In this document: positions 15,050-64,000 of the stretch, in pieces
How the letters are laid out: each line of letters opens with the position of its first letter
Numbering within the stretch: position 1 is the stretch's first letter
Assembly: GCA_002716945.1 (NCBI GenBank)
Contig: PBCF01000002.1
Span: 482,374 to 546,373 of the forward strand
Direction: 5' to 3'
Length of the DNA: 64,000 bases
From: Gammaproteobacteria bacterium
Lineage (GTDB): Bacteria; Pseudomonadota; Gammaproteobacteria; GCA-002705445; GCA-002716945
Notes under the pieces: model-generated
Database searches by the model: none
The model's input: only the letters and a program-made list of their open reading frames with translations
What the model was told of the DNA's origin: nothing
Position numbers and translations under genes: made by a program

Positions 15050-15394
15050 GTGGATATGTTGAAAAAAGTCAGAAATTTACTTATCATCTTTCTTATGTTC
15101 TATGTTCCATCTTCATATTCAGATGTGATTGATGAAGGAAAAAAGCTAACATTTGAAAGGAAAAAAGGAAATTGTTTAGCGTGTCACATGATTGAAGATG
15201 GTGAATTAGCTGGAAACAATGGTCCTCCATTAATAGCTATGAAAGCTAGATTTCCAAATAAACAAGATCTCTTTAATCAAATTTGGGATGCGACTGAGAA
15301 AAATCCCAATTCCTTCATGCCTCCTTTTGGGAAACATGGTATATTAACTAAAAAAGAAATTAATAAGATAGTAGAATATCTTTATACTTTATGA
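15050..15394 (+). CDS. soxX: Sulfur oxidation c-type cytochrome SoxX
   Basis: GNCLACH heme motif, GNNGPPL, MPPFG; first gene of XYZA; start may be ATG 15056. Confidence 0.92.
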   Translation: MDMLKKVRNLLIIFLMFYVPSSYSDVIDEGKKLTFERKKGNCLACHMIEDGELAGNNGPPLIAMKARFPNKQDLFNQIWDATEKNPNSFMPPFGKHGILTKKEINKIVEYLYTL

Positions 15395-15401
15395 GGAATT
15401 T

Positions 15402-15866
15402 ATGAATAGAAGAAAATTTTTAAAAAATTCGTTACTAACTGTGGGCAGTATAATGTCTGTAGCTACTCTCTCTATTATACCTAAACGTGTATTTGCTTCT
15501 TGGCCAAAATCATCGTTTGACGAAAAAGATTTAGAGAAATCCATAAAAAGCGTTTATGGACACAGCGACTTGACAGAATCATCTAAAGTGATCTTAAAAG
15601 CACCAGAAATTGCTGAGAATGGAGCTATTGTTCCAATAAATGTAAAAACAAAATTAAAAAGAGTTGAGTCAATAATGGTTTTTGTTGAAAATAATCCACA
15701 ACCATTATCGAGTGGATATTACCTTAGTTCTTTAGCTGAACCGACCATTGGAACAAGAATTAAAATGGGAAAATCTTCTAAAGTAATTGCAGCAGTTAAA
15801 AGCGGAAATAAAGTATACAGTTCTTCAAAAGAAATTAAAATTACTATTGGTGGCTGTGGAGGATAA
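15402..15866 (+). CDS. soxY: Thiosulfate carrier protein SoxY
   Basis: Tat signal RRKFLK, APEIAENG, C-terminal TIGGCGG swinging arm. Confidence 0.97.
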   Translation: MNRRKFLKNSLLTVGSIMSVATLSIIPKRVFASWPKSSFDEKDLEKSIKSVYGHSDLTESSKVILKAPEIAENGAIVPINVKTKLKRVESIMVFVENNPQPLSSGYYLSSLAEPTIGTRIKMGKSSKVIAAVKSGNKVYSSSKEIKITIGGCGG

Positions 15867-15868
15867 TC

Positions 15869-16177
15869 ATGAGTACAATAAAAATTAGAGCAAAAGAAAG
15901 CAAAGGAATCGTAACTGTTAAAGCACTTATTAAACATCCTATGGAAACTGGAAAAAGAAAGAATAAAAAAACGGGTGAATTAATACCACCACACTACATT
16001 CAAGAAGTAATAGGACAAGCAAATGGAAAAGAAGTTATAAAAGTTTATTGGGGGCCAGCTGTATCTAAAAATCCTTACTTAACTTTTAAATATAAAGGTG
16101 AAAAGGGAGATAAAGTTGAACTAACGTGGGTTGATAATAAGGGTAATAGAGATTCAAAAAATCAAGCTGCTAAATAA
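15869..16177 (+). CDS. soxZ: Thiosulfate carrier complex subunit SoxZ
   Basis: HPMETG..K, HYIQ, SKNPY, WVDNKG; no signal peptide, as expected. Confidence 0.95.
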   Translation: MSTIKIRAKESKGIVTVKALIKHPMETGKRKNKKTGELIPPHYIQEVIGQANGKEVIKVYWGPAVSKNPYLTFKYKGEKGDKVELTWVDNKGNRDSKNQAAK

Positions 16178-16180
16178 ACT

Positions 16181-17020
16181 ATGAAAATGAAAAAATTTTT
16201 GATTATACCTTTTATAGTTTTATTAATTTTTGGTATTGAAGCAAAAACATCCCCTGAAGAAGACTTAACCGATTTTAGAAATCATTTCAAAGAACTTTTT
16301 CCTAATACACCATTCAGTGATTTTGCAAATGGTGTATATTCAATAGATAAATCATCACGAGAACAATGGGAGTCCATCGAAGATTTTCCTCCTTATGAAA
16401 TAAATATAGAGAATGGCGAAGAGTTATTCAATGAACCATTTAAAAATGGAAACAAATATGCATCATGTTTTGAAAATGGGGGAATTGGTATTCGTCAAAA
16501 TTATCCCTATTTTGATGAAAATAAAAATAAAATTATTACTCTTGAGTTAGCAATTAATAATTGTAGAAAAAAAAATAATGAAAAACCTTTAAATTATTAT
16601 AAGGGTGGAGATATGGCTGATATCTCAGCCTATATGGCTTACACATCTAGAGGTAATATAATTAATATAGAAATTCCAAATAATATGGAAGCTCTTGATG
16701 CTTATGAAGCAGGAAAGAGATTATACTTTACAAAAAAAGGACAATTAAATTTCTCATGTGCAGATTGTCATGTATGGAAATCAGGAACTAAGCTGCGTGC
16801 AGATATTACGAGTCCTGGAATAGGACATCCTACACACTTCCCTGTTTATAGATCTGTAGCAGGACGATTAGTAACATTACATGAAAGATATGCCGGCTGT
16901 CTTAACAGAATTAGAGCTAAACCTTATAAAGGACAGAGTGCGGAATATAGAAATCTTGAGTATTTTATGACTTTTATGAGCAATGGTTTAGAAATAAATG
17001 GTCCAGGTTCAAGAAAATAG
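16181..17020 (+). CDS. soxA: SoxA cytochrome c (mono-heme type)
   Basis: Single CADCH; GQLNFSC, FPVYR, RYAGC...RA active-site Cys; N-terminal Cys pair in place of a second heme. Confidence 0.93.
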   Translation: MKMKKFLIIPFIVLLIFGIEAKTSPEEDLTDFRNHFKELFPNTPFSDFANGVYSIDKSSREQWESIEDFPPYEINIENGEELFNEPFKNGNKYASCFENGGIGIRQNYPYFDENKNKIITLELAINNCRKKNNEKPLNYYKGGDMADISAYMAYTSRGNIINIEIPNNMEALDAYEAGKRLYFTKKGQLNFSCADCHVWKSGTKLRADITSPGIGHPTHFPVYRSVAGRLVTLHERYAGCLNRIRAKPYKGQSAEYRNLEYFMTFMSNGLEINGPGSRK

Positions 17021-44133: not shown

Positions 44134-44143
44134 TTTTTATAAA

Positions 44144-46386: not shown

Positions 46387-47704
46387 TTACTGCATCCATA
46401 AATGCAATTCCTCTTTCTTTGAAACTTTCAAACATATCAAAACTGGGGCTACCAGGAGATAATAATACAATATCATTGGCTATTGCATTGTTATATGATA
46501 TTTGAACAGATTCATTTATTGTATTACATATTATTCTTGGAGCCTTTGAGACAATTTGTTTGTTAATTGATTTTTTATTTTCCCCAAATAAGATTAGCAA
46601 TTTTACATGGTTATCAATATAAATATTCAATTTAGTATAATCTAGATTTTTTTTTGAACCCCCCATTATCAATATTATATTTTTCTTTAAATATTTTAAT
46701 GCTGTTATTGTTGAAAAAACATTTGTAGACTTTGAATCATTAAAATAACTTACATCATTAATCTTTTTTACTAATTGAATTCGATGAGGGAGATGATTAA
46801 ATTTTTTCAATATGTTTATACTTTTTTTAAAAAAATCATTTTTATCGTAAATATTTTTAGTAATTGAAAGCACAGCTAAAATATTATCTAAATTATGTAT
46901 ACCTCTATAATCGAATGAAGTATCCTCATAATATAATTTAGTTTTATCCATTCTCAAATCACGTACATGAGAATTATTTATATATATTTTATAAGAATTA
47001 CTCGTATTTGTATTTTCAAACCCATATTTTCTGATATTTGGAATATCTTTCATGTATTCTATAAGATTATTGTGACAAATATTAATCTTAGTACTATTAA
47101 AAATCTTTTTTTTTGTATTTAGGTAATTATCAAAATTATTATGTCTTTCGAGATGATCGTCTTGAATATTAGATATTAAACTTATATTACTATTTAAATT
47201 AGTCATATATTCTAACTGATAACTTGATAATTCTAAAATAATATAATTAAATTCTTCATCTAAAGTTAGAAATGGAGATATACCATTATTACCACAAGCT
47301 TTAGCCTTAATACCCAATCTATTTAATAAATATTCCAACATTGTGACAATGGTTGTTTTACCATTAGTGCCAGTTACTGAAATAATTTTACGTCGAGATA
47401 ATCTTTTAAATAAATCTATGTCAGTTATTATTGGAATTGATCTTTGATTTAGATCTTTTATTATTTCTTGATTAGAATCTAAACCAGGACTAATTATAGC
47501 TTCCTCTACATTATTCAAAAATTCTTTTTCATATTTTACAAATCTCATATCATGTTTATTTGATATGGCTATGATAGATTTATCAATGCAAGTAACATCT
47601 CTTGTATCAAAAATTTTAAATCGTATGTTATTTTTATGAAAGTAATCAATACATGATTGGCAGGTTTTACCCGTTCCAATAATCAATGTACATTTCTCAT
47701 CCAT
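46370..47704 (-). CDS. murD: UDP-MurNAc-L-Ala--D-glutamate ligase
   Basis: SPG, VTGTNGKTT, ELSSYQL, DHLERH, HR, NDSKSTN, SPG..SFD.F. Confidence 0.94.
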   Translation of the reverse strand: MDEKCTLIIGTGKTCQSCIDYFHKNNIRFKIFDTRDVTCIDKSIIAISNKHDMRFVKYEKEFLNNVEEAIISPGLDSNQEIIKDLNQRSIPIITDIDLFKRLSRRKIISVTGTNGKTTIVTMLEYLLNRLGIKAKACGNNGISPFLTLDEEFNYIILELSSYQLEYMTNLNSNISLISNIQDDHLERHNNFDNYLNTKKKIFNSTKINICHNNLIEYMKDIPNIRKYGFENTNTSNSYKIYINNSHVRDLRMDKTKLYYEDTSFDYRGIHNLDNILAVLSITKNIYDKNDFFKKSINILKKFNHLPHRIQLVKKINDVSYFNDSKSTNVFSTITALKYLKKNIILIMGGSKKNLDYTKLNIYIDNHVKLLILFGENKKSINKQIVSKAPRIICNTINESVQISYNNAIANDIVLLSPGSPSFDMFESFKERGIAFMDAVNDLDQ

Positions 47705-47705
47705 A

Positions 47706-48791
47706 TTATCTAATCTTTAAGGATGCCAAAGCAATTAAGACCAATATAAAGGTTATTATCCAAAATCGAACTATAATTTTTGGTTCTGCCCATCCACTCA
47801 ATTCAAAATGATGGTGTAATGGTGACATTTTAAAAATACGTTTTTTAGTTCGCTTAAAATATAAAACTTGTATAATTACAGATAGGACTTCAGCTATAAA
47901 TACTCCACTCATAATAGCGAATGCTATTTCTTGTCTCAGTAAGATTGCCATTGTTCCCAAAACAGCTCCTAATGATAGTGATCCAACATCGCCCATAAAG
48001 ATCTCAGCAGGATATGAGTTGTACCATAGAAATCCTAGTCCCGAACCTACAATTGCACCTGCAAAGATTGAGATCTCAGATGCATCTTTTAGATAAGGGA
48101 TTAAAAGATAGTTAGCAATATTAATATTTCCTTGTACGTATGCAAATACAACAAATGCTGCTGCTATTAATATACATGGAAGAATTGCTAAGCCATCTAA
48201 TCCATCCGTCAAGTTAACAGCATTACTTGATCCAACTATAATAAATATACACCAAGGTATAAAAAGAATTCCCATGAAAAAAGAGAAGTCTTTGAAGAAA
48301 GGTAATATTAATGTTAGTTCTGTTACATCTAAATAATTTATATATAAATAAATAATTGCTAATGCAGAAAAGAAGATTTGTAAGAAAAATTTATTTTTAC
48401 CTTTAATCCCATCGCTAGATGATTGAATATATTTTTTATAATCATCATAAAAACCAATAATACCAAATGTAGTTAAAATAAATAATAGTATCCAAATATA
48501 TCTATTATTGAGTTCAGACCAAAGTAAAGTTGTTAAAATAATTGAAATAATAATTACCAAACCTCCCATTGATGGTGTTTTTGATTTTTCTGTAATATGT
48601 GATTGAGGTCCATCTTGTCTAATTGATTGATAAAGTTTTTTATTATTAAGCCAACGCATTAATAATGAAGTCATGATGAGAGACATAAATAGACCAGTTA
48701 ATGCTGCTAAAACAATTCTAAGACTCAAATACTGGAAAACATTAAAGCCAGAATAATATTGAGCAAGATAATCAAAAATATAAAGTAACAT
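47706..48791 (-). CDS. mraY: Phospho-MurNAc-pentapeptide transferase
   Basis: TPSMGG, DDY.K, NAVNLTDGLDGLA, FMGDVGS, PLHHHFE. Confidence 0.97.
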   Translation of the reverse strand: MLLYIFDYLAQYYSGFNVFQYLSLRIVLAALTGLFMSLIMTSLLMRWLNNKKLYQSIRQDGPQSHITEKSKTPSMGGLVIIISIILTTLLWSELNNRYIWILLFILTTFGIIGFYDDYKKYIQSSSDGIKGKNKFFLQIFFSALAIIYLYINYLDVTELTLILPFFKDFSFFMGILFIPWCIFIIVGSSNAVNLTDGLDGLAILPCILIAAAFVVFAYVQGNINIANYLLIPYLKDASEISIFAGAIVGSGLGFLWYNSYPAEIFMGDVGSLSLGAVLGTMAILLRQEIAFAIMSGVFIAEVLSVIIQVLYFKRTKKRIFKMSPLHHHFELSGWAEPKIIVRFWIITFILVLIALASLKIR

Positions 48792-48797
48792 AATTTA

Positions 48798-50135
48798 TTA
48801 TTTATTCTCTGTGTTTATCAATTGCATGACTATATCTTCAAATTTCATAAAACGCGAAGCTTTCACTAAGATATTAACATCTTTATGTAATTTTGTTCTA
48901 ATAAACTCAACAAGTGAATGTTTATCATCAAAACAGTGAACATTATTTCCGAAGGTTTCCTTAACAATTTTTTCAAATTGACCAATATAAAATAACTTTT
49001 CAATCCTAAGTTGTTTCGCATATTTAACAACATCTTGATGAAATTTTTCTGATTCAGATCCAAGTTCACCCATATCACCCATAACAAACCAGTGATTACC
49101 CGCCATTGACGATAAAGAATCTAGAGATCTTTTCATTGAAGAAGGATTTGCATTATAACTATCATCAATAATTATTGAGTTCTTGATTCCATCATACAGA
49201 TAAAATCTTCCTTTTATGCCTTTATAGTTAGTATAACCATCAACTATATTTTGTATAGATGCTCCAGCTTGATGAGAACACGCTACAGCGATAAGAATAT
49301 TTTCTATAAATTTTATATGGTTATCTTTAAGTAATAACTGTAACAATTGATTATTTGGTAATTTTATATTTAGTTCATTTCCAATAATACTTTTTATGGA
49401 GTAATCAGCATTATTTTTTATAGAAATTGTTACTAGATTATGATTATTTACAATTTTTTTCCATCTAAGAAAATTTTTATCATCTTTGTTTAAAATAACT
49501 GTTTTAGAAAAACCTTGATCAATTAATATTTCTTCTTTGGTTAGTAAAATATTTTCAAAACTACCAAAACTTTCTATATGAGCTGCCGAGACATTGAGAA
49601 GAGTTACAATTTTAGGATTAACAATTTCACACAAATACTTTATATCATCTTTAACACTTGCTCCCATTTCTAATACGCAATATTTATGATTTGTATTTAA
49701 TTTAAAAATAGATAATGGAACGCCAATATGATTATTAAAATTACCATAATTAGTTAATGCATTCTTATTTTCATTTAATATAGAATGAATTAATTTTGTT
49801 ACTGAAGTTTTACCATTAGTCCCAGTAACTGCAATTGATAATGGGTTCAACTGATTTATGTGTTGCTGTGCAATTTTTCCTAATGCTATCATTGTATTTT
49901 TGACAACAAGCTGAGGTATGTTATCAATTTTTCTTTCTGAGATGATTGCAGATGCACCTTTTGAAATTGCATTATTGATATAATTATGTCCATCGAAATT
50001 ATATCCTTTGATAGCAATAAAAAGATTTCCTGATTCTATTGTTCTTGAATCAATAGATATACCATCAAACTGAGAATCTGAATTAATTAATTCAGCATCT
50101 AATAACTTTTTAAGTTTAGATAAAGAAGATTTCAT
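48798..50135 (-). CDS. murF: UDP-MurNAc-tripeptide--D-Ala-D-Ala ligase
   Basis: TGTNGKTS, NFNNHIGVP, EMGAS, DDSYNANP, GDMGELG, KASR. Confidence 0.95.
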   Translation of the reverse strand: MKSSLSKLKKLLDAELINSDSQFDGISIDSRTIESGNLFIAIKGYNFDGHNYINNAISKGASAIISERKIDNIPQLVVKNTMIALGKIAQQHINQLNPLSIAVTGTNGKTSVTKLIHSILNENKNALTNYGNFNNHIGVPLSIFKLNTNHKYCVLEMGASVKDDIKYLCEIVNPKIVTLLNVSAAHIESFGSFENILLTKEEILIDQGFSKTVILNKDDKNFLRWKKIVNNHNLVTISIKNNADYSIKSIIGNELNIKLPNNQLLQLLLKDNHIKFIENILIAVACSHQAGASIQNIVDGYTNYKGIKGRFYLYDGIKNSIIIDDSYNANPSSMKRSLDSLSSMAGNHWFVMGDMGELGSESEKFHQDVVKYAKQLRIEKLFYIGQFEKIVKETFGNNVHCFDDKHSLVEFIRTKLHKDVNILVKASRFMKFEDIVMQLINTENK

Positions 50136-51529
50136 TTCAAACCTGAATTTAGTATTTTAAAATCATTATGGAGAATATTGCGATTCTTGTACACAATATT
50201 CTTTTCATTACCTTTGCCAGCAATAACAATAAAATCATCCTTGCGGGCTAATGATATAGCTTTATAAATAGCTTTTTTTCTAGATGGAATAACAAAAACT
50301 TTTTTTTCATTTTCTATCCCTTTTTTAATATCATTTAATATTTTCTTAGGATTTTCAGTACGTGGATTATCATCAGTTAAAATAATATAATCAGAAAAGT
50401 TAGATGAGATTTTCCCCATCTCTTTTCTTTTCCAAACATCTCTATCACCACCACACCCAAAAATAGTAATAATTTTACCAGGTTTTAGTGATGAATATTT
50501 ACTAATCTCTTTTAACAGCATTAATAATGAACTAGGAGTATGAGCGTAATCAATTATATAAGTGCCTTTGTTATTAGTTTGTATAAAATGATTTCTGCCA
50601 TTAATGGTTTTCAATTTATTAAATATCTTGAAGATTAATTTAAATGATAATTTATAAATTTTAAGAATTTCGAATGCCACTCTTAAATTATATAAATTTG
50701 AAATTGTAGTAGGTATTTTAATTTTATTTAAATCTATTTCAATATCTGAATTATAGAAATGTCTTTTAGCCTTAGAAGTAATTAATTTCAAATTTTTCAT
50801 ACTTCTAGAACAATCCGCATTAATAAAAATATGTCTTGTTGACATATTCATTAGTCTCATTTTTGCTTTTACATAATTTTGTATCGATTTATGATAATCT
50901 ATATGATCTTGATTAATATTAGTAAGAATTCCTATATCAAATTTTATATTAACTAATCTATCTTGTTCTAATCCTTGTGATGAACATTCAATTAATATTT
51001 TATCAACATGATTTTTTCTAAAATAATTAAAATATTTATATAAGATATCTATTCTTGGGGTTGTATAGTTAGTTGAGTCTAACTTTGGATATATGCCATT
51101 TCCTTCACTAGATATAATTCCTAATTTTTCACCTGTTAACGAGAAACATTGTGCAAGAATATGTAACTGAGAAGTTTTTCCATCTGTACCAGTCACCCCT
51201 ATTATAGGAATTTTCTTCAGAGGTTCATCATAGATACAATTCAAAAAGTTATTATAATTTAACCCAATTTCTTTGATATATAAAATAGGTATATTTCTTA
51301 ATGTATCTAATAATTCTATTTTTGTATCTGTAATTATTGCTTTTGCACCATTTTTGATTGCTTCACATACATATTTAACTTTAACTTTTTTGTCTGTTTT
51401 TATAGATACAAAGACTTTTCCTCTACAATTATTCTTGCTGTGAAAAACAAACATATTATCTAATTTTTTTTTATATAATTTGTTCTCTTGGAGAAATTCA
51501 ATTACTTTTAGAAATATTCTGTCTTTCAT
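50132..51529 (-). CDS. murE: UDP-MurNAc-dipeptide--meso-DAP ligase
   Basis: VTGTDGKTS, TTP, E.SS, DHIDYH, DYAHTP, GCGGDRD, DNPR (meso-DAP specificity). Confidence 0.92.
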   Translation of the reverse strand: MKDRIFLKVIEFLQENKLYKKKLDNMFVFHSKNNCRGKVFVSIKTDKKVKVKYVCEAIKNGAKAIITDTKIELLDTLRNIPILYIKEIGLNYNNFLNCIYDEPLKKIPIIGVTGTDGKTSQLHILAQCFSLTGEKLGIISSEGNGIYPKLDSTNYTTPRIDILYKYFNYFRKNHVDKILIECSSQGLEQDRLVNIKFDIGILTNINQDHIDYHKSIQNYVKAKMRLMNMSTRHIFINADCSRSMKNLKLITSKAKRHFYNSDIEIDLNKIKIPTTISNLYNLRVAFEILKIYKLSFKLIFKIFNKLKTINGRNHFIQTNNKGTYIIDYAHTPSSLLMLLKEISKYSSLKPGKIITIFGCGGDRDVWKRKEMGKISSNFSDYIILTDDNPRTENPKKILNDIKKGIENEKKVFVIPSRKKAIYKAISLARKDDFIVIAGKGNEKNIVYKNRNILHNDFKILNSGLK

Positions 51530-53249
51530 GCTTATCCGGATAAACTTGTAATAAATTTAATGTATGTCCCATAAACTCTTTAAATATTGGAGCGGCGTTC
51601 TTTCCTCCACTAGGTTCAGATACTTTTGGGTTTCTTAGAATAATAACCGAAACAAATTCAGGTTTAGATGCAGGTACAATTCCTACAAACAATACTACAT
51701 ATTTATTATCACTGTATTTGCCGTTCTCAATCATCTTGGCTGTTCCTGTTTTTCCTGCTACTGAATATTTTTCTAATCGTGCTTTTTTAGCCGTCCCATC
51801 ATTAGATACAACATTTGTCATCATTTTTATGATGTTTTTTGAAAGTTCTTTATCTAAAATTTTTTTCTTATGTATTTTATCATTATCTAAATGTTTGAGA
51901 TATGTAAGTTCAATATAATTTCCATAGTTAGCTAAAATTGCATACGCATTTGCAAGATGTAATAAGGTCATATCTAGTCCATAACCATAACTAATGGATG
52001 CATGTTCACTTTTTTCCCAACTTTTATAATGATGTAAATTTCCTTTCTGCTCTCCTGGCAAACCTATGTATAATGACTTGCCAAACTGCAGTTTTTCAAG
52101 ATTATCTGAAATATGTTTTTTATCTAATCCTAAGGCAACTAAAGCTGCACCTACATTGCTTGATTTAGTAATTATTCCTTTTAAGTCTAATTTACCTAAA
52201 TATTTATAATCTTTGATGGTATGTCCGTTAATTTCTAAGAATCCAGGTGCAGTATCAATAACTGAATAATTATCAAAATTTCCAGATTCTAGTGCGGTGT
52301 ATATTATAAATGGCTTCATTGTAGAACCAGGTTCAATAATATCAGTTACAACTTTATTTTTTATTTTTTCACCTTTCATCTCACTTCTATTAGATGGATT
52401 AAAGGATGGATAATTGACCATTGTTATAATTTCGCCAGTAGTATTTTTAATTAATACAAGTGACGCGCTATCTGCATTTGTTTTTTTGACATGTTTCTTT
52501 AAAGTATTATATGCATGTAATTGGATGTATTTATCTAAACTCAAATGTATATCTTGACCAAGTTTTGGAGGTTTAACAATTTCAATAGTTTCAATTTGTC
52601 TGCCAAAATTATCTTTTTTAATTTTTTTTAATCCTTTTATTGGGGTTAAAAGATTATTGTTGGCATATTCTATTCCTTCTTGACCGATATCATCTATATT
52701 AGTAAATCCTATTATATTTGAGAAATAACGACCACCAGGGTATGTTCTATGATACTCGTCTATGAAATAAATTGATGGTAGATTTAATTTTCTAATTTTT
52801 GTAACAATAGAATCTGGTAGTTTTCTTTTTAAATAATATTCTTTTTTGTTTTTATTTATAGTAAATATTTTTTTAAATTTATCTTTTTTTATATTTAATA
52901 AAACTAAAAGAGGTTCATATACTTTTAGATCAATATTTTTTTGTTGATTTATTTCTGAAAAATTAATACATAAAGTTTGTCTAGGTAGACTCATTGCTAA
53001 TATTTCACCATTTCTATCATATATAAAGCCTCTAAAAGTATTTATAGAGCGAAGTTGTGTTTGTCTTTTATTGGCTAGTTTGCTTAGATTAGATTTACAA
53101 AACTTTTGATTCAAAATAAAACAATCTGTATCAAATCCTTGCAAAAGAATTGTTCTGGATAAAATTAAAACAAAGAATATGGAGACAATAGCGTATACAG
53201 TGTATTGCCTCCAAAGGTTATGTTTTTCGTTATTTTTTTGTTTAGTCAG
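51498..53249 (-). CDS. ftsI: Penicillin-binding protein 3 (FtsI), probable CTG start
   Basis: RGFIYDRNG, STMK (SxxK), SSN (SxN), KTG. The frame stays open 35 codons upstream of the track's TTG and encodes the TM anchor. The first plausible start after the in-frame stop (53259-61) is CTG 53249. Identity is near certain, the start less so. Confidence 0.88.
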   Translation of the reverse strand: MTKQKNNEKHNLWRQYTVYAIVSIFFVLILSRTILLQGFDTDCFILNQKFCKSNLSKLANKRQTQLRSINTFRGFIYDRNGEILAMSLPRQTLCINFSEINQQKNIDLKVYEPLLVLLNIKKDKFKKIFTINKNKKEYYLKRKLPDSIVTKIRKLNLPSIYFIDEYHRTYPGGRYFSNIIGFTNIDDIGQEGIEYANNNLLTPIKGLKKIKKDNFGRQIETIEIVKPPKLGQDIHLSLDKYIQLHAYNTLKKHVKKTNADSASLVLIKNTTGEIITMVNYPSFNPSNRSEMKGEKIKNKVVTDIIEPGSTMKPFIIYTALESGNFDNYSVIDTAPGFLEINGHTIKDYKYLGKLDLKGIITKSSNVGAALVALGLDKKHISDNLEKLQFGKSLYIGLPGEQKGNLHHYKSWEKSEHASISYGYGLDMTLLHLANAYAILANYGNYIELTYLKHLDNDKIHKKKILDKELSKNIIKMMTNVVSNDGTAKKARLEKYSVAGKTGTAKMIENGKYSDNKYVVLFVGIVPASKPEFVSVIILRNPKVSEPSGGKNAAPIFKEFMGHTLNLLQVYPDKHERQNISKSN

Positions 53250-54429
53250 CTTGTTGCCTTAAAAAAGCTGGGATGTCGATATTTTCATCTTCATCATCTT
53301 CATCACTATTAACACTTTTTTCAGTATTTAATAAACTAGATTGAGTATTAAAGCTCATCTGAGTTATATTTGGCTTAACTACAGCTTGCTCAACAGAGTT
53401 TATTGGTGTTTGTGCATCAATATTCGTGTTATCTGCTGAACCAAGACTACTATTGACTGTATTGATATTAGTACCCTCATCAAATCCAGTAGCAATAATT
53501 GTGACTCTCAACTCGCCAAGATTATCCTCTTCTTTAATACATCCTGTGATGATTGTTGCTTCTTCATCAGCAATATCTTTAATCTTACGTCCAATTAGAT
53601 TTAGCTCTTTCGGAGTTAAATCATCTCCAGAAGTTATATTTACAAGAACTCCTGTAGCACCTTGAAGATTAAAACTATCAAGTAATGGACAACTTAGTGC
53701 AGCGTTGATGGCATCTTCAGCTCTATTTTCTCCTTCTGCTTTTGCTGAACCCATCATGGCTTTACCTTTTCCTGACATTACTGTTTTTACATCCGCAAAA
53801 TCTACATTCATAAATCCACGAATTGTTATAATTTCAGCAATTCCTTTTACAGCTCCAGTAATGACACCATCAGCATTATCAAACTGAGAGTAAATTGAAC
53901 CATTTTCACCAAAGACTTCCATTAATTTAGTATTAGGAATTACAATTAAAGAATCTACCCATTCTTCAAGATTAACAATACCAACCTCAGCATGCTCCAT
54001 TCTTTCCTTGCCTTCCCATTCAAATGGTTTAGTTACAACCGCAACAGTTAGAATTCCTAGATCTCGTGCAATTTGTGCAATAATAGGTGCTGCACCAGTT
54101 CCAGTTCCGCCGCCCATTCCTGCTGCTATAAATAGCATGTCTGCTCCTTCTATGGTTTTTTGGAGTTGTTCCTTTGATTCAAGCGCTGCTTGTCTTCCTT
54201 TTTCTGGATCTGCACCTGCACCAAGACCATTTGTTATTTCGCTACCAATTTGAACAGTGGTTGCTCCATCAATATCTCTAAGTGCTTGTGCATCAGTATT
54301 TGCAACTATAAAGTCCGCTCCATGTATTGTATCTCTGAGCATTGTATCAACAGCATTGCCGCCAGCTCCTCCAACACCAATAACTTTGATAATTGCGTTT
54401 TGACTGTAATTATCTACTATTTCAAACAT
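53242..54429 (-). CDS. ftsZ: Cell division protein FtsZ
   Basis: GVGGAGGNA, NTD.QAL, GGGTGTG, NVDFADV, C-terminal DIPAFLRQQAD; GGAGGT SD 8 nt upstream. Confidence 0.98.
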   Translation of the reverse strand: MFEIVDNYSQNAIIKVIGVGGAGGNAVDTMLRDTIHGADFIVANTDAQALRDIDGATTVQIGSEITNGLGAGADPEKGRQAALESKEQLQKTIEGADMLFIAAGMGGGTGTGAAPIIAQIARDLGILTVAVVTKPFEWEGKERMEHAEVGIVNLEEWVDSLIVIPNTKLMEVFGENGSIYSQFDNADGVITGAVKGIAEIITIRGFMNVDFADVKTVMSGKGKAMMGSAKAEGENRAEDAINAALSCPLLDSFNLQGATGVLVNITSGDDLTPKELNLIGRKIKDIADEEATIITGCIKEEDNLGELRVTIIATGFDEGTNINTVNSSLGSADNTNIDAQTPINSVEQAVVKPNITQMSFNTQSSLLNTEKSVNSDEDDEDENIDIPAFLRQQAD

Positions 54430-54431
54430 GA

Positions 54432-54716
54432 TTAAATACCTCCGTTAGAAGTCGTTAAATTTAAATAAATAATTTTATTTTTACTAGGAATATCCATCCC
54501 TAAAGTTTCTTTATAACTTTTGTAGCTCAATTTTTTCTCATAATTTGATTTGATATCAAGTAATTTTTTATGTTGATTTAATTTTACTGATAGTGATTTT
54601 TCTTTTTTTTCTAATCCAATATTCATAAGTCTATTTTGATACTTAAGATATATTACTGAAAATGCAGAAAGTGATAATACTAGCATAATGAACAAATTAA
54701 TTGATATTTTCATCAT
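54432..54716 (-). CDS. ftsL: Cell division protein FtsL (divergent)
   Basis: Short N-terminus, TM helix, coiled coil, LGM..P motif; follows rsmH. Confidence 0.75.
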   Translation of the reverse strand: MMKISINLFIMLVLSLSAFSVIYLKYQNRLMNIGLEKKEKSLSVKLNQHKKLLDIKSNYEKKLSYKSYKETLGMDIPSKNKIIYLNLTTSNGGI

Positions 54717-55635
54717 TTTTCTCCAGTATATTCAATTTTGCTGATCTAGATCTTGGATTGGCAGAAATTTCTTCGTTTGATGGTTTTATTGATTTTGAGA
54801 TAATATTAAACATTTTAGATAAAAAAGATTTATCTAGAGGTAAATCTTTTGGTGCAGAAAGATTTGTATCAGTATAAGTTATAAAATCTTTAATTACTCT
54901 ATCTTCAAGCGAATGGTAAGTAATTAAAACTAATCTGCCTTTAGGGGCTAATACCTGATATGATTTTTCTAAAGCATTTTTCAATACTTCTAATTCTTGG
55001 TTGATATAAATTCGTATAGCTTGGAAAGTTCGAGTTGCATTGTGTTTATTTTTATCATTTTTTGGAACAGATTGATTTATGATGTTAACTAAATCATGTG
55101 TGTTTTCAATTTTATTAGATTTTCTAAATGATATTATTTTTTTAGCTATCTTATTTGCATATCTTTCTTGTCCAAATTTCTTTATAACATTTCTTAATTG
55201 CTCTTCACTAACTTCTGATATCCACTCTCTAGCTGGGGATCCACTATTCTGATCAAATCTCATATCAAGAGGGCCGTCATTTTTAAAACTAAAGCCTCTT
55301 TTTGGGTTATCTAGATGTTCAGATGAAACACCTAAATCAAATAAGATTCCATTCACAGAACCATGAATTCCCCAGTCTTTAGTTATTACGTCTAGGGAAG
55401 AGAAACATCCGTGTTTAAGAGTAAATCTTTTATCACTTAAAGTATTCTTGTTTGCATTTTTTATAGCATCAAAGTCTTTTTCAATGGAATATAACTTACC
55501 ATCATTATTTAAATAATTTAGTATCTCTTGTGAATGTCCACCAGATCCAAATGTTGTATCTATATAGATACCAGACTTTTTAACGCAAAGCGCTTGTATT
55601 GATTCTTCTTTCATAACTGGAATATGATTTATCAT
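54697..55635 (-). CDS. rsmH: 16S rRNA m4C1402 methyltransferase
   Basis: HIPVM, D.TFGSGGHS, DLGVSS, PLDMR, FQAIRIYIN.E, YHSLEDR, NPRSRSAKL. Confidence 0.97.
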   Translation of the reverse strand: MINHIPVMKEESIQALCVKKSGIYIDTTFGSGGHSQEILNYLNNDGKLYSIEKDFDAIKNANKNTLSDKRFTLKHGCFSSLDVITKDWGIHGSVNGILFDLGVSSEHLDNPKRGFSFKNDGPLDMRFDQNSGSPAREWISEVSEEQLRNVIKKFGQERYANKIAKKIISFRKSNKIENTHDLVNIINQSVPKNDKNKHNATRTFQAIRIYINQELEVLKNALEKSYQVLAPKGRLVLITYHSLEDRVIKDFITYTDTNLSAPKDLPLDKSFLSKMFNIISKSIKPSNEEISANPRSRSAKLNILEKNDENIN

Positions 55636-55832
55636 CCTGTTAGCTTTTTAAATTTCATTATGTTGTCGTAAGCTTCTCTAGCTTCAATAAATCTTTGATT
55701 AGAATCCAAGTCATTACTTGTCTTGTCAGGATGATGCTTTAAGGCAACTTTAATAAATGCTCTTTTAATTTTACTTAAATCTTCGTTTCCTTTAATATCA
55801 AGTATTTTATAACATTGGGTTAAATTCATCAT
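55632..55832 (-). CDS. Stand-alone J-domain (DnaJ-domain) protein, 66 aa
   Basis: YKILDI..IKRAF...LKHHPDK...F...REAY J-domain with intact HPD; ATGA overlaps with both neighbours. Confidence 0.85.
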   Translation of the reverse strand: MMNLTQCYKILDIKGNEDLSKIKRAFIKVALKHHPDKTSNDLDSNQRFIEAREAYDNIMKFKKLTG

Positions 55833-56281
55833 ATACGTACATCTCCCAAAACTGATTCTTCGTTTTCATCAGTTTCTTCAGTTTTCCATTTAGAGACTTG
55901 GCTTTGCCACAGATCATCATTCCAAATTTCAAATTTTTCACCTTGGCCAATTAAAGTCACTTTCTTAACTAAATCTGCAGAGTTTCTTAGAGGTTTAGAA
56001 ATCAAAATTCTACCATTATTGTCCATTACTACATCTTCAGCATGGCCAACTAATAACCTTTGAATTCTTCTAGCATTTTTATTAAATGAAGGTAAGTTGT
56101 TGATTCTTTTCTGTATTTCATTCCATATTTGTAATGTGTAAAGCAATAAACACTTTTCTTCAGTATCTATGGTGATAACCATATTACCATTGACTTGGTT
56201 GGTTATAACTTCCCTAAATTTTGTAGGAATCGCTAAACGACCTTTTGTATCTAAATTAATGTTATGGATACCCTTAAACAT
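55829..56281 (-). CDS. mraZ: Division/cell wall cluster transcriptional repressor MraZ
   Basis: MFKG...LDTKGRLAIP and DNNGRILI twin motifs, G.GEKFEIW; start at ATG 56281. Confidence 0.96.
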   Translation of the reverse strand: MFKGIHNINLDTKGRLAIPTKFREVITNQVNGNMVITIDTEEKCLLLYTLQIWNEIQKRINNLPSFNKNARRIQRLLVGHAEDVVMDNNGRILISKPLRNSADLVKKVTLIGQGEKFEIWNDDLWQSQVSKWKTEETDENEESVLGDVRI

Positions 56282-56330
56282 ATTAACCACTATTTCCCAT
56301 AATTTAACAAAAATTACCATATTTCAACAC
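56281..56330 (-). promoter_or_regulatory. MraZ operator: five degenerate direct repeats with 10-bp period
   Basis: Minus strand GTGTTGAAAT/ATGGTAATTT/TTGTTAAATT/ATGGGAAATA/GTGGTTAATA directly before the ATG; resembles the TGGGN/GTGG boxes bound by MraZ. Confidence 0.7.
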
Positions 56331-58653: not shown

Positions 58654-59265
58654 ATGTATAAAATTAATAAAAAACAAGTGACAACTTTAATTTTGGCTGG
58701 TGGCAAATCTACAAGAATGGACGGTCAAGATAAAGGGTTATTAAATGTAGAAGGTAAATATATAATAAATTATATAATTAATATTGCTGAAAAATACTCC
58801 AAAAAAATAATAGTAAATGTTAATAGAAACTTTGAAAAATATGAGGCAATGGGGTTAGTAATTTGCAAAGATGTACTAGATGACTTTCAAGGGCCGCTTG
58901 CAGGTATATATTCAGGCTTGATGATGATAGATACTGAATATATGATAACTTTACCTTGCGATGGTCCATTTATTAGAGATATATTTTTTAAAAAAATGAT
59001 TTCATCAGATAACAATGCTGATATAAATGTTGCTCATGATGGAAAAAGAATACAACCTGTATATTGTATGATAAAAAAAAGTGTAACTAATAATCTAGAA
59101 AGTTTTCTTAAAACAGACCAACGAAAAATAGATAAATGGTTTGAAAATAATATAACAAATTTGATAGATTTTTCACAATATAATGAGATGTTTGTTAATA
59201 TTAATGATAAAAATGAATTAGAAAAGTATAAAAAACAAATTTTAAATAATATAAAAAATGAATGA
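58654..59265 (+). CDS. mobA: Molybdenum cofactor guanylyltransferase
   Basis: LAGGKSTRMDGQDKGL, NVNRN, GPLAGI, PCDGP, FVNIND. Confidence 0.92.
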   Translation: MYKINKKQVTTLILAGGKSTRMDGQDKGLLNVEGKYIINYIINIAEKYSKKIIVNVNRNFEKYEAMGLVICKDVLDDFQGPLAGIYSGLMMIDTEYMITLPCDGPFIRDIFFKKMISSDNNADINVAHDGKRIQPVYCMIKKSVTNNLESFLKTDQRKIDKWFENNITNLIDFSQYNEMFVNINDKNELEKYKKQILNNIKNE

Positions 59266-59791
59266 TTTAGAAAAAAGAATTGCTTGGGGATTAACAGGTT
59301 CTGGTCACTATTTAAAAGAGTCTATGGAAATTATTAAATCTTTAGATAATGTTGATTTATTTTTAAGCAAAGCTGGATATGAGGTTTTAAAATGGTACGA
59401 TTATGATTTAAAAGATCTTAAGAAAGATGGAATTAAAGTTTTTAAAGATGTAACTGCAAGTTCAGCGCCTGTTAGTTTGTTTTATGAAGATATATATAAA
59501 TTACTTGTAATTGCACCAGCTACATCTAATACTGTCGCTCAAATGGCTTATGGTATGTCAGATAATTTAATAACAAATATTTTTGCTCAGGCTGGAAAAT
59601 GTAATATACATTCAATTGTATTTGCATGTGATACTGAGCCTGTTGTAATAACTGAAGCTCCAAAAAAAATGGTAACATTATATCCAAGAGAAATTGATCT
59701 TAAAAATTATAAATTACTAAAAGAATTCAAAAATACTGATGTAGTTAAACATGTAACTGAACTTAAATCGGCATTAAAAAAATGGACGTAA
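59258..59791 (+). CDS. dmrB: Dihydromethanopterin reductase-like flavoprotein (AfpA/DmrB family)
   Basis: IAWGLTGSGH, APATSNTVA, D.L.TN.FAQAGK, VFACDT, PR.ID; context of pterin biosynthesis genes. Confidence 0.82.
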   Translation: MNDLEKRIAWGLTGSGHYLKESMEIIKSLDNVDLFLSKAGYEVLKWYDYDLKDLKKDGIKVFKDVTASSAPVSLFYEDIYKLLVIAPATSNTVAQMAYGMSDNLITNIFAQAGKCNIHSIVFACDTEPVVITEAPKKMVTLYPREIDLKNYKLLKEFKNTDVVKHVTELKSALKKWT

Positions 59792-61167
59792 AAGAAAATA
59801 TATTATTTATAACTGGTAAATTAGCTGAAAAAAACCTCAGAAGAGTTTTAGATCAAATAGAAGACAAGGAATTTAATTTTGAGATAAGAAACTTAAGCAT
59901 AAATGTAGCAGCTTTATTGACTACAGATATGATAAAAAGACGTATTGGTAATACACAAGGTTTTACAAAACTAATTTTACCAGGGAGAGTAAGAGGAAAT
60001 ATAGAAGATTTAAGTAAAAAACTTAATATAGAAGTTCTTAGGGGTCCAGATGAATTAAAAGACCTACCTACTTTATTTGGACGTAAATCTCTAGATTTTG
60101 ATTTGTCCAAATATGAAATATCAATCTTTGCCGAAATAACAGATGCGCCAAATTTAAGTGTGTCAGAGATTTTAGATATAGCAACTTCATATCGTAATGA
60201 TGGCGCAGATGTAATTGATATTGGATGTTTACCCAATGTTAAATTTAATCATTTATCTGAAACAGTACAAGAATTAAAAAAGCATGATTTTTATGTGAGT
60301 GTTGATTCCCATGATAATGATGAACTTATTACTGGGGGTAAGTCTGGAGCAGATTATTTATTAAGTATAAAATCAGATAATATGTTTATATTAGATGAAG
60401 TAGAATCTAATCCAGTATTAATACCTCATAATGGTGATATGAACACACTTTTTAATGCAATAGAAAAATGTATTGAATTAAAAAAAACATTTATCGCAGA
60501 TCCAATATTAGATCCAATACATTTCGGTTTTACAAAATCAATATCTAGATATACTCAAATTAGAGAAAGGTATCCAGATATACATATAATGATGGGAACT
60601 GGAAATATAACAGAGTTGACACATGCTGATACTACAGGGATAACATTAATGTTATTAGGAATCATGTCTGAATTAAAACTTAATCATGTTCTTACGACAC
60701 AGGTAAGTGATCATTGTCGAACTGTGATAAAAGAAACAGACTTGGCAAGACGAATCATTCACGCATCTAACGAGAATAACATGACACCTAAACACATTAG
60801 CAATCAACTACTTGTAACCCATGAGGATACACCTTATAAATATACATACGATGAAGTAATTGAATTATCTAAAAATATACGCGACCCCAGTTACAGAATT
60901 ATTGTAACTAAAGAAGGAATACATTTATTCAATAGAGATGGGATGCATACTTTTAAGGATCCATTTGATTTTTTCCAACATTTAAATGTTGGAAAAGATA
61001 CAGGGCATGCATTTTATTTAGGGGTTGAACTTGCTAGAGCTCAAATTGCATATCAAATTGGTAAATTTTATTCTCAAGATGAAGAGCTTAATTGGGGTTG
61101 TTTGGTTGACAATGAAGAAGATGATAAAATGACATTTAAACCTACAGGACCGACATATAAGAAATGA
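59782..61167 (+). CDS. Dihydropteroate-synthase-related protein (DUF6513 / Orf20 of H4MPT clusters)
   Basis: LFITGKLAE, RGPDELKDLP, IFAEI.DAP, GADVIDIGC, SVDS, DPILDPIHFGF, MGTGNITELT.ADTTG, HAFYLGVELARA. Confidence 0.85.
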   Translation: MDVKENILFITGKLAEKNLRRVLDQIEDKEFNFEIRNLSINVAALLTTDMIKRRIGNTQGFTKLILPGRVRGNIEDLSKKLNIEVLRGPDELKDLPTLFGRKSLDFDLSKYEISIFAEITDAPNLSVSEILDIATSYRNDGADVIDIGCLPNVKFNHLSETVQELKKHDFYVSVDSHDNDELITGGKSGADYLLSIKSDNMFILDEVESNPVLIPHNGDMNTLFNAIEKCIELKKTFIADPILDPIHFGFTKSISRYTQIRERYPDIHIMMGTGNITELTHADTTGITLMLLGIMSELKLNHVLTTQVSDHCRTVIKETDLARRIIHASNENNMTPKHISNQLLVTHEDTPYKYTYDEVIELSKNIRDPSYRIIVTKEGIHLFNRDGMHTFKDPFDFFQHLNVGKDTGHAFYLGVELARAQIAYQIGKFYSQDEELNWGCLVDNEEDDKMTFKPTGPTYKK

Positions 61168-61724
61168 TTCATGAATCAATTGTAATCAGTAAATCTAATG
61201 GGAAAATTCATATAGCTCCTATGGGTATAGAAATGAATTCAGAATTGGTAATAATAAAGCCATTCAAACCATCAACAACATTAGAAAATTTAAAAAATAA
61301 TGGTATAGCAACTGTCAATTTTACTGATGATGTTAGAATATTTGCCGGTATTGTTTCAGGGTTTAAAAAAAATTGGGATATTATTGATAATAATAAATTT
61401 GACATACCTAGATTAAAAATTGCAAATACTCACTTAGACGTTAAAGTCCAAAAAGTGTTTGATAATGATTTGAGACCAAAGATTGAATGTCAAATTCTTA
61501 ACAAAGCAATGCATTTTCCATTCCATGGTTTTAATAGAGCGCAGTTTTCAGTAATAGAAGCATCTGTCCTAATAAGTAGAATGGGTATAATATCAATGGA
61601 AAAAATAGAGGATGAGATAAAATACTTAAAAATTGGAATTGATAAAACAGCTGGATCTAAAGAGAAAGAAGCTTGGGATTGGATTGAAAAAAGTATAAAT
61701 AATTATAGAAAGAAAAATGACTAA
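61164..61724 (+). CDS. DUF447 family protein (H4MPT-cluster associated)
   Basis: IHESIV, HIAPMG, PFKPSTTLEN, TDDVRIFAG, GFNRAQ.SVIE.SVL.SR, KTAG..E.EAW. Confidence 0.85.
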   Translation: MIHESIVISKSNGKIHIAPMGIEMNSELVIIKPFKPSTTLENLKNNGIATVNFTDDVRIFAGIVSGFKKNWDIIDNNKFDIPRLKIANTHLDVKVQKVFDNDLRPKIECQILNKAMHFPFHGFNRAQFSVIEASVLISRMGIISMEKIEDEIKYLKIGIDKTAGSKEKEAWDWIEKSINNYRKKND

Positions 61725-62397
61725 ATTTTTAGCAAGTATAAAAAATGAATATGAAGCACTAGAAGTGAGAAAAGCTAATATAGATATAATAGATTTAAAA
61801 GCTATTAATGATGGTGCATTAGGTTTTGTAGGTAAAAATATTATGACTAATGTAAGACAGTTGTTATCTAGCCATACTATAAGTGTAACTATTGGCAATG
61901 ATAAAAATCCAAATAATTGTACCACTATCAATAATATCAAATATGCTATAAGTTCAAGAATCGACTACATTAAAATAGGGTTATTTGAAAATAAATATGT
62001 TCATGAGCATCATAAATTACTTCAAAAAATTGATTTCCAGAATACTAATCCAATCTGTGTGATGTTCGCAGATAAAGAATTTAATTTAGAAGTTGCAAAA
62101 AAAATTTCATCTATTGGTTATAAAGGTATAATGATAGACACATGTAATAAAAACGGTATTTCTACAACACAATTATTGCCAAACCACTTAATAGAAGAAT
62201 TCGTTAGACAAATGAAAAAAAGAAATATTTTTTGTGGTTTATCTGGTTCATTAAATTTCAGTGATATAAAAAAACTTAAATCTTTAAATCCTGACTTTCT
62301 TGGTTTTCGAGGTTTGGTGTGTATTAACGGTAATGACAGAGATGAAATAAGTTTAGATTTACTTAACCAAGTTTCTTTGGAAATTGCAAAACATTAG
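61717..62397 (+). CDS. mfnB: (5-formylfuran-3-yl)methyl phosphate synthase-like (MfnB/DUF556, Orf22)
   Basis: LAS...EAL, IIDLK..GALG, YIKIG, MIDT..K, GLSGSL, PDFLGFRG. Confidence 0.82.
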   Translation: MTKFLASIKNEYEALEVRKANIDIIDLKAINDGALGFVGKNIMTNVRQLLSSHTISVTIGNDKNPNNCTTINNIKYAISSRIDYIKIGLFENKYVHEHHKLLQKIDFQNTNPICVMFADKEFNLEVAKKISSIGYKGIMIDTCNKNGISTTQLLPNHLIEEFVRQMKKRNIFCGLSGSLNFSDIKKLKSLNPDFLGFRGLVCINGNDRDEISLDLLNQVSLEIAKH

Positions 62398-63748
62398 AAT
62401 CAAAGATATCCAATATAGGTCTTACTTTATCTAATGTTTCTTGGTATTCAGATTCAGCATCAGAATCAAAAACGATTCCCCCTCCACCCCAAAAATAAAC
62501 TGTTGTGTCAGTTGCGATCATTGTTCTTATTGCAATATTTAAATCTGCTTTTTGATTAAAACTTAGATATCCTATTGAACCACAATATATACCTCTTCGA
62601 TCAGGCTCTAATTCATTAATTATTTGCATAGCACGTATTTTTGGAGCTCCTGTAATTGAACCTCCAGGAAAACAACCATTGATTAAATTAAACATATTAC
62701 TTTTATTTGAAATTCTTCCTTCAATGGTACTAACTAAATGATGGACATTAGCAAAAGTCTCTATATCAAATAGATTTTTAACATCTATACTTCCATATTC
62801 GCAATTCTTCCCTAAATCATTTCTTAATAAATCAACAATCATTAAATTTTCAGCTCTATCTTTTTCTGATAATAATAATTCTTTTTTGATAAGTGAATCT
62901 TGATCTATATTATTTATCATTGCTCTTGTTCCTTTAATTGGTTTAGTTTGTACTAAATCTCTATCAACATGTAAAAACCTTTCTGGAGAATAACTTAAAA
63001 TTTTTACAAACGGAAAACTCATATAAGCTGAATATGGTGAATGATATGTAGGTAAAAGTTTATTAAAAATATTCCAAGCATCACCTTTATAATCAAATGA
63101 AAATCTTTGCGAAAAGTTAATCTGATAGCAATCTCCTTTTTCAATATAGGATTTAATTAAATTAAATTTTTCTATATATTCATCGTATGTTAGATTTGAT
63201 TGACAACTATTTATGATTTCAATATTAACGTTTTTTATTTTTTCAAATGATTTGGAAGAAAGTTTTTTTTGTAAAAACTTAATTAAATCAGTCTTATTTT
63301 TATAGATAAGTCTAATTTTTTTTTCATGATGATCGATAATTACAGCCCATTCATATATTCCAAAAGCCATGATAGGAATATCTAAATCATTATTTGTTTT
63401 CTGCTTTATAGATTCATTTTTATTTCCTAAATCATATGAAAAGTATCCTATAGCTCCACCAGAAAACGGCAATTCACTATCATCATCACTAAGATCATCT
63501 TTCATAACGTCCTTTAGAATAGATATTGGATCATCTCTAAAAACTTGTTTTGACTTTAAATCTTCAACAATTGTAGCGTTTTGATAAGTAATAACTTTTT
63601 TGGTTGGATTAGCAGAAATAATATCATATCTTTGTTCTGAAAATATATTATTGTTACTAAATAAAAATACTGGCCACTCTTCGTTTTTAATTAAATCAAA
63701 AATTTCGTTTGTATTTTTATAATAATTAAATTCTTCTTTAAAAATCAT
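62363..63748 (-). CDS. pabB: Aminodeoxychorismate synthase component I
   Basis: PFSGGAIGYFSYDLG, GDCYQIN, SPERF, PIKGTR, KDRAENLMIVDLLRND, FPGGSITGAPK, GGGIV. Confidence 0.93.
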   Translation of the reverse strand: MIFKEEFNYYKNTNEIFDLIKNEEWPVFLFSNNNIFSEQRYDIISANPTKKVITYQNATIVEDLKSKQVFRDDPISILKDVMKDDLSDDDSELPFSGGAIGYFSYDLGNKNESIKQKTNNDLDIPIMAFGIYEWAVIIDHHEKKIRLIYKNKTDLIKFLQKKLSSKSFEKIKNVNIEIINSCQSNLTYDEYIEKFNLIKSYIEKGDCYQINFSQRFSFDYKGDAWNIFNKLLPTYHSPYSAYMSFPFVKILSYSPERFLHVDRDLVQTKPIKGTRAMINNIDQDSLIKKELLLSEKDRAENLMIVDLLRNDLGKNCEYGSIDVKNLFDIETFANVHHLVSTIEGRISNKSNMFNLINGCFPGGSITGAPKIRAMQIINELEPDRRGIYCGSIGYLSFNQKADLNIAIRTMIATDTTVYFWGGGGIVFDSDAESEYQETLDKVRPILDIFDSNVLQFPKKLG

Positions 63749-64000
63749 CGTAATTTTTTTTTACCAAATATATTAATGAATAAGCAGGTGCAATATCTGA
63801 TGGCTTATATGTACCAATAATCTTATGCTCACAAAAATCATCAAAATCTAAATATCTCCAATTATTTCTCTTGCAAATTATTTTAACTAAAAACTTCCCT
63901 ACACCCGCGCCTATTATCTTATAATCTGAAATATTTTTATATTTTTTTAAATGATATTTAATGTTACTACTAATATGATTGATGTGTATAGTAATTATTT
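63738..64000 (-). CDS. C-terminal fragment of a hydantoinase/oxoprolinase-family H4MPT-cluster protein (Orf9/MfnF-like); 5' end outside window
   Basis: Hand translation ...KIIGAGVGKFLVKIICKRNNWRYLDFDDFCEHKIIGTYKPSDIAPAYSLIYLVKKNYDDF*, open to the window edge; overlaps the pabB start by 11 nt. Confidence 0.6.
   Translation of the reverse strand, partial: IITIHINHISSNIKYHLKKYKNISDYKIIGAGVGKFLVKIICKRNNWRYLDFDDFCEHKIIGTYKPSDIAPAYSLIYLVKKNYDDF

Follow-up and report, generated by a model that had tools for sequence, protein, structure and literature searches.

What do the cofactor genes at the end of a 64,000-nucleotide stretch of contig PBCF01000002.1 serve, in a bacterial genome of 1.09 Mb that also carries sox genes? 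The stretch, hereafter the window, corresponds to C4:482374-546373, where C4 is an 820-kb contig in an assembly of six contigs with 29% G+C and an estimated bin contamination of 4.7%. An earlier note on this DNA had read the genes as a cluster for tetrahydromethanopterin (H4MPT) and methylofuran, serving the Fae-Mtd-Mch-Fhc route of formaldehyde oxidation in a streamlined sulfur oxidiser that lives on methylated sulfur or other one-carbon (C1) compounds. According to our analysis, with a probability of about 0.8, the window genes are the cofactor-making arm of a complete H4MPT/methylofuran formaldehyde-oxidation island, one that adjoins, without a break, a methanethiol oxidase (mtoX) module and an NAD-linked formate dehydrogenase. 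Gene families were assigned by Pfam and NCBIfam profile scores, given below in bits against the curated cut-off, and matches to PDB entries were obtained with phmmer. Motif scans of the PROSITE type yield weak negatives, as divergent proteins escape them; one of two FTHFS patterns missed the real FtfL in this genome. Coordinates without a contig prefix are those of the window.

All six genes on which the earlier note relied were recovered where it had placed them and in the expected families, and every cofactor open reading frame (ORF) of the window is intact. They stand behind mobA (58654..59265, plus strand; TIGR02665, 181 bits against 152), which encodes a molybdenum cofactor guanylyltransferase, is the first gene of a plus-strand operon and probably serves the island's formate dehydrogenase of the molybdenum-bis(molybdopterin guanine dinucleotide) type. 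Overlapping mobA by 8 nt is the gene for a reductase (59258..59791, plus strand) that scores 80 bits with PF02441 (Flavoprotein) and 96-98 bits with TIGR02699/TIGR02700, the AfpA/MJ0208 models; we call it a DmrB-type (AfpA-family) dihydromethanopterin reductase because it matches PDB 3WIS/4MWG, described as 'putative dihydromethanopterin reductase (AfpA)', with E=1e-46. It is followed on the same strand by genes for an Orf20-type protein with a DUF6513 and a dihydropteroate-synthase-like (DHPS-like) part (59782..61167; PF20123, 97 bits; TIGR00284, 178 bits, under the cut-off of 257), for an Orf19-type DUF447 protein (61164..61724; DUF447_N and DUF447_C; PF04289, 79 bits; PF20766, 53 bits), which matches the uncharacterised protein PDB 3B5M with E=2e-17, and for an MfnB-like 4-(hydroxymethyl)-2-furancarboxaldehyde-phosphate (4-HFC-P) synthase, assigned to the furan moiety of methylofuran (61717..62397; PF04476 4HFCP_synth, 154 bits; PRK02227 models of NCBIfam, 80-156 bits, every one under its cut-off). 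Neighbours among these five plus-strand genes overlap by 4-10 nt, and we therefore regard them as one translationally coupled operon. The MfnB-like gene converges with pabB (62363..63748, minus strand; TIGR00553, 369 bits against 328), encoding aminodeoxychorismate synthase component I, their 3′ ends overlapping by 35 nt on opposite strands (62363-62397). The window closes within an Orf9/MfnF-like gene, of which it holds the 3′ part, encoding the C-terminal 86 aa (63738..64000, minus strand); the full gene (C4:546111-547163, 350 aa) reaches 244.6 bits with TIGR03123, just above the cut-off of 244.1, and its second-best model is MfnF, with 150 bits.

The claim that these genes belong to the Fae-Mtd-Mch-Fhc pathway is borne out by what adjoins the window. 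The contig continues downstream with fae, mtdB, mch, mptG and fhcBADC, among which three genes for ATP-grasp ligases are interspersed, so that the core enzymes whose absence would have spoken against the claim, namely, Fae, Mch, an MtdB-type dehydrogenase and FhcABCD, are all found, and MptG and mtoX as well. After the Orf9 gene, the order on the contig is an MfnD-like ATP-grasp gene, a HisA/F-related gene, fae, a CitG-like gene, an MptN-like RimK ligase gene, mch, the third ATP-grasp gene, the gene for an Mpt_N-domain dehydrogenase of MtdB type, mptG, fhcB, fhcA, fhcD and fhcC. Scores are well above the cut-off for Fae (TIGR03126, 241 bits against 118), Mch (TIGR03120, 404 against 229), FhcA (695 against 393) and FhcD (430 against 293), and above it for FhcC (148 against 131) and for the beta-RFAP synthase MptG (TIGR00144, 131 against 113). 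The set for H4MPT biosynthesis is thus represented by MptG, by PabB for the supply of p-aminobenzoate and by the DmrB-type reductase. The DHPS-like, DUF447, CitG-like, HisA-like and ATP-grasp genes are linked to the pathway; for the DUF447, DHPS-like, CitG-like and ATP-grasp genes the link is genetic, and their products are not known to have a demonstrated reaction. From mobA to fhcC the island measures about 18.7 kb, and from mobA to fdhD, the last of the genes described below, 38.4 kb or 3.5% of the genome.

Immediately past fhcC stand genes for a TlpA-like thioredoxin, for a 682-aa protein in which SCO1-SenC and CCP_MauG domains are fused, and for MtoX (SBP56), the methanethiol oxidase (NF052453, 703 bits; equivalog cut-off, 650). 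A methanethiol oxidase above its equivalog cut-off, with a SCO1-MauG partner and directly after fhcC, supports the life on methylated sulfur that had been proposed from the window. Past mtoX, the next gene encodes an outer-membrane protein of 509 aa; genes for a ferredoxin-FNR reductase, a GST-like protein and an AlkB-like membrane protein follow, and after them those for SCO1 and pterin-4a-carbinolamine dehydratase. The row ends with the genes of an NAD-type formate dehydrogenase (fdsGB-fdsA), which has a fused subunit resembling NuoE/F and whose alpha subunit scores 757 bits against 666, and with folP, an MBL hydrolase gene and fdhD. As to other sources of formaldehyde, we found in the genome no XoxF/MxaF, no member of the GCV_T family (which includes DmdA, GcvT and Tdm) except a weak YgfZ-like match, and no luciferase-type monooxygenase, hence no DmoA; FMO/Tmm was sought by motif scan only and gave a weak negative. 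Since XoxF/MxaF, the GCV_T family and DmoA were not found, MtoX would be the sole recognised formaldehyde source among the entry routes sought.

Taking the gene content as observed, and reading fluxes, chemistry, the entry of H2S into Sox and cofactor structures from the named families, we propose the following working of the system. Periplasmic MtoX would convert methanethiol to formaldehyde, H2S and H2O2; Fae would join the formaldehyde to H4MPT, and MtdB, Mch and FhcABCD, the last with methylofuran, would carry it to formate, which the formate dehydrogenase would oxidize to CO2 with formation of NADH. The sulfur would leave as sulfate by way of SoxXYZAB and Sat-AprMBA. On the cofactor side, the product of pabB is predicted to give p-aminobenzoate to MptG, the DmrB-type flavoprotein to reduce dihydromethanopterin, and the MfnB-, MfnD- and MfnF-like genes to make methylofuran.

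The sulfur part of this scheme is encoded at three places on C4. The window itself carries soxX-soxY-soxZ-soxA (15050..17020, plus strand; SoxX 98 bits against 61, SoxY 162 against 125, SoxZ 132 against 76, SoxA 220 against 110), SoxB is encoded at C4:285091-286776 (766 bits against 550), and Sat-AprM-AprB-AprA, which would act on sulfite, at C4:683384-687874 (AprA, 990 bits against 642). Beside the latter operon, and divergent from it, we observed a 652-aa ORF on the minus strand (C4:681277-683235) without an NCBIfam match. No large subunit of RuBisCO was found in the genome, and we therefore prefer the term lithoheterotroph with Sox to that of an autotrophic sulfur oxidiser of the classical kind. 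Hexulose-6-phosphate synthase was likewise not found (best match, 37 bits against a cut-off of 200), which leaves no ribulose monophosphate (RuMP) pathway, and because both this pathway and RuBisCO are missing, C1 carbon appears to be mainly burnt for energy.

Comparison with related genomes of the same family, six genera overall, shows that the island is old and has been kept across the family. The mch gene was found in 31 of the 36 genomes of the family, and the five that lack it are 57-75% complete; mtoX is present in each of the six genera, at a distance of about 11 kb from mch in every case where one contig carries both; some absences of mtoX are probably assembly breaks, and several partial matches lie at contig ends. 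The order from mobA to fhcC and on through tlpA and the SCO1/MauG gene is the same in at least eight independent assemblies of relatives, which places the clustering of the window genes far beyond chance. In those assemblies the catalytic enzymes are 71-91% identical (Fae 89-91%, Mch 75-79%, FhcA 72-77%) and the cofactor genes 35-70%; across genera, the DmrB-type reductase is 69-82% and the DHPS-like protein 62-71% identical. SoxB, for which 25 family genomes were compared, was found in 18, and the C1 pathway is the more constant family trait.

Several observations weigh against the island being a complete pathway run for energy and coupled to sulfur oxidation. FhcB (best match, 184 bits, under its cut-off of 328) and several cofactor genes score under the curated cut-offs, and the Pfam domain by which the MtdB-type dehydrogenase was recognized (Mpt_N, PF09176, 122 bits) does not alone separate MtdA from MtdB. 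All four genomes of one genus (G003, G008, G013 and G017), of which two are 96-98% complete, lack SoxB yet keep mch and mtoX, which suggests that Sox was lost in this lineage; since a whole genus lacks SoxB, the coupling to Sox is not obligatory. SoxCD was not seen near soxB, whose neighbours, inspected by eye, resemble MsrP/MsrQ and GlyA, no genome-wide search for SoxCD having been made, and a crude motif scan, which is a weak negative, gave neither a sulfide:quinone reductase nor a flavocytochrome c. Lastly, a serine-cycle-like gene set exists in the genome, and 'energy only' may be too strict a description.

This gene set is the basis of the alternative that survives best, although we consider it unlikely, namely, that the pathway is also assimilatory, with formate passing via FtfL to tetrahydrofolate and into an isocitrate-lyase-positive serine cycle, as in a true, facultative methylotroph. 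Its components, recognized as candidates at the level of families, are an operon (C4:782521-785975) for an aminotransferase of the Sga/BhcA family (530 bits), a glyoxylate/hydroxypyruvate reductase and a glycerate 2-kinase; a locus (C4:70940-73946) where an Mcl-like lyase gene is followed by those for MtkA (NF010647, 633 bits; equivalog cut-off, 604) and MtkB; isocitrate lyase (792 bits) and FtfL (907 bits); and FolD and GlyA. Two motifs of the PROSITE type did not detect a phosphoenolpyruvate (PEP) carboxylase, and a match to the 'GYSDS' motif (C2:21809-23488) that had been considered as PEP carboxylase is a penicillin-binding protein (PBP) on a probable contaminant or variant contig. We also rejected the malyl-CoA lyase and thiokinase genes as proof of a serine cycle, since the MtkAB pair is the sole SucCD homologue in the genome and may be a plain succinyl-CoA synthetase. 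The same genes could serve the use of glycolate or glyoxylate or replace malate synthase, so that either a serine-cycle-like route or a malate-synthase bypass is a possible reading of the set. Furthermore, a published analysis of the order GCA-002705445, to which this genome probably belongs, found no unambiguous serine pathway (PMC8371827). Oxidation of C1 carbon mainly for energy thus stays our preferred reading.

Less probable still is that the island mainly detoxifies incidental formaldehyde, released by MtoX, by demethylations or by photochemistry, and is not the core of an energy lifestyle based on C1 and organosulfur compounds. H4MPT pathways do detoxify formaldehyde in some non-methylotrophs, and the search for XoxF/MxaF showed that a classical methanol dehydrogenase is missing here, methylamine genes not having been searched for. 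However, a conserved 38-kb block that, in so small a genome, joins the island to mtoX and to a formate dehydrogenase yielding NADH exceeds the needs of detoxification, and in the probable order MtoX reaches levels at which metaproteomes detect it (PMC8371827).

With regard to the integrity of the assembly, a chimeric joining of the sox and H4MPT regions, which would have undone the proposed link between the two, is contradicted by their arrangement: 42 kb separate them within the window, both are on one contig, and the 46 kb from soxXYZA through the dcw genes to dusA-mobA-dmrB are collinear in a genome of another genus (three contigs, 0% contamination), on which basis we consider the assembly not to be chimeric. 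In the dcw part of this stretch (40482-56320), ftsZ is placed between ftsL and ftsI and not after ftsA, a position that it also has in the second genus, and a 66-aa ORF with a J domain lies between mraZ and rsmH. Elsewhere in the assembly, contigs C2 (23.5 kb) and C6 (24.1 kb) are near-duplicates in opposite orientation and carry a second dnaE, a second ileS, an ftsI-like PBP gene and an rsmH-like gene, all differing from their C4 counterparts. Either these contigs are contaminants or they stem from a variant population binned together with this one, in agreement with the contamination estimate. All 61 single-N positions on C4 fall within C4:380776-405615 and C4:552194-577604, the latter stretch spanning fhc, mtoX, the AlkB-like module and fds, and they probably mark polymorphic consensus positions, i.e., strain variation. 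That the juxtaposition of sox, H4MPT and mtoX genes arose through faulty assembly or binning, or reflects an island newly acquired from elsewhere, is hardly credible, since the contamination estimate, the near-duplicate contigs, the clustered N positions and the rise of the G+C content to 34-40% in the mtoX-alkB-fds part are outweighed by the location of everything on one contig together with core division and ribosomal-context genes, by the same order and content in other genera, by a G+C content in the H4MPT part (23-33%) that is native to the genome, and by the fact that the G+C-richer part holds the region's most conserved proteins (91-94% identity between genera for the AlkB-like protein), which itself limits drift towards AT. 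Because the H4MPT part has the G+C content of the genome and synteny extends throughout the family, we also rejected a recent horizontal transfer of the island.

The genes directly upstream of mtoX deserve separate attention. They encode an AlkB/XylM-like hydroxylase, a GST-like protein, a XylA-type reductase and a FadL/TodX-type porin (C4:563812-569373, minus strand; window-equivalent 81439-87000), and together with mtoX, the SCO1-MauG gene and tlpA they form a series of seven co-directional genes (C4:569373-559737) beginning with the putative di-iron hydroxylase. The latter is a protein of 425 aa that has no matching NCBIfam model and aligns to the AlkB structure 8SBB (E=1.5e-27) with all His boxes in register (HELSH, NHH, NYLEHYGL and DHH), including the NYxEHYGL box of membrane di-iron enzymes. 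In a class-level comparison of 401 Gammaproteobacteria genomes, it is 28-36% identical to ordinary AlkB-type matches, whereas identity within its own group is 54% or higher. Genes of this group occur in 16 genomes, 14 of which also encode MtoX, a protein encoded in 31 of all 401 genomes (p=1e-15 by genome and p=1e-8 by family, Fisher's exact test); the gene adjoins mtoX in this family and in two unrelated lineages, lies within 18 kb of it in a fourth, and is accompanied by the genes for the GST-like protein and the XylA-type reductase. With a Toluene_X (FadL/TodX) porin of a homologous cluster, the 509-aa protein shares 41% identity. As for the traits expected of alkane hydroxylases, the protein shows no close kinship to characterized members, and its partner is a ferredoxin-FNR reductase of the XylA/BenC type instead of a rubredoxin. 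The genome encodes a FadD-like ligase, and motifs of the PROSITE type detected no beta-oxidation enzymes in it; this weak negative argues weakly against catabolism of long-chain alkanes.

A candidate monooxygenase feeding MtoX, which may act on dimethyl sulfide (DMS) or another small methyl compound, is a reasonable hypothesis on these sequence grounds. Tentatively, and with less than even confidence, we suggest that the conserved supercluster of about 38 kb takes DMS, and not only methanethiol, to CO2 and sulfate, the AlkB-like hydroxylase being the DMS monooxygenase (DMS to methanethiol and formaldehyde) of marine bacteria without DmoA. According to Kroeber and Schaefer (2019, PMC6548844), who studied Methylophaga thiooxydans DMS010, the enzyme that starts DMS degradation is still missing; if the module acts on DMS, it would fill a known gap in that degradation and alter the reading of marine 'alkB' surveys. 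A 2026 study assigned the top in situ 'alkB' expression in the photic Gulf of Mexico to GCA-002705445 and read it as alkane use, and public annotation also names the gene described here alkB. Should our suggestion be true, the top photic-ocean 'alkB' transcript signal, assigned to the probable order, would reflect oxidation of DMS and not degradation of alkanes. The AlkB-like module is the more novel item compared with the cofactor cluster and merits experiment.

Among known systems, the islands of the Methylorubrum extorquens AM1 type (fae, mtdB, mch, fhcABCD, mptG, orf5/7/9/17/19/20/22/Y) have the same enzyme set and the same linked genes as the island described here, i.e., the DHPS-like, DUF447, MfnB-like, Orf9/MfnF-like, CitG-like, HisA-like and ATP-grasp genes, and the chemistry from formaldehyde to formate is inferred to be the same. 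In contrast to that type, the present island is compact, about 19 kb in a 1.09-Mb genome of low G+C content, its operon is headed by mobA, and no Orf21/MfnE-type kinase was seen in it. The reductase also differs, being of DmrB (AfpA) type, whereas M. extorquens uses one of DmrA type. Moreover, no methanol dehydrogenase was found, and the adjacent source of formaldehyde is methanethiol oxidase instead.

Closer in kind is the order GCA-002705445, for which Francis et al. (2021, PMC8371827) described 1.1-Mb genomes with a complete H4MPT pathway and with SBP56/MtoX in metaproteomes but without an identifiable RuMP or serine pathway. Other papers report a low G+C content for the order and high abundance in subtropical gyres. 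The present genome agrees with this order in size, G+C, gene content and habitat, and its membership is probable. The pathway itself is standard biochemistry of methylotrophs, and with H4MPT and expressed MtoX already published for this order in 2021, the finding of the cofactor cluster is essentially known; PMC8371827 mentions neither Sox, Apr nor the physical linkage of mtoX with the island. What emerges is an abundant ocean lineage of low G+C content and about 1 Mb that commits about 3.5% of its genome to energy from methylated sulfur. Because of this commitment, and because the C1/methanethiol trait is kept in every genus sampled, and more faithfully than Sox, the lineage is a plausible sink for methanethiol from demethylation of dimethylsulfoniopropionate (DMSP).

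The nearest functional parallel is M. thiooxydans DMS010 grown on DMS, in which MtoX with SCO1/MauG, the H4MPT pathway and formate dehydrogenase act jointly in the degradation of DMS and methanethiol (PMC6548844). The proteins induced by DMS in that organism include a fatty-acid-desaturase-domain protein, an NAD-binding oxidoreductase (618 on DMS versus 12 on methanol), a hydrocarbon-type outer-membrane protein (1469 versus 18), Sco1 (454 versus 12) and an MBL hydrolase (PMC6548844). Matched by annotation, not by sequence, these are the same as the genes that surround mtoX in the present genome. Methylophaga differs in having a genome of about 3 Mb, in being a RuMP methylotroph and in possessing methanol dehydrogenases.

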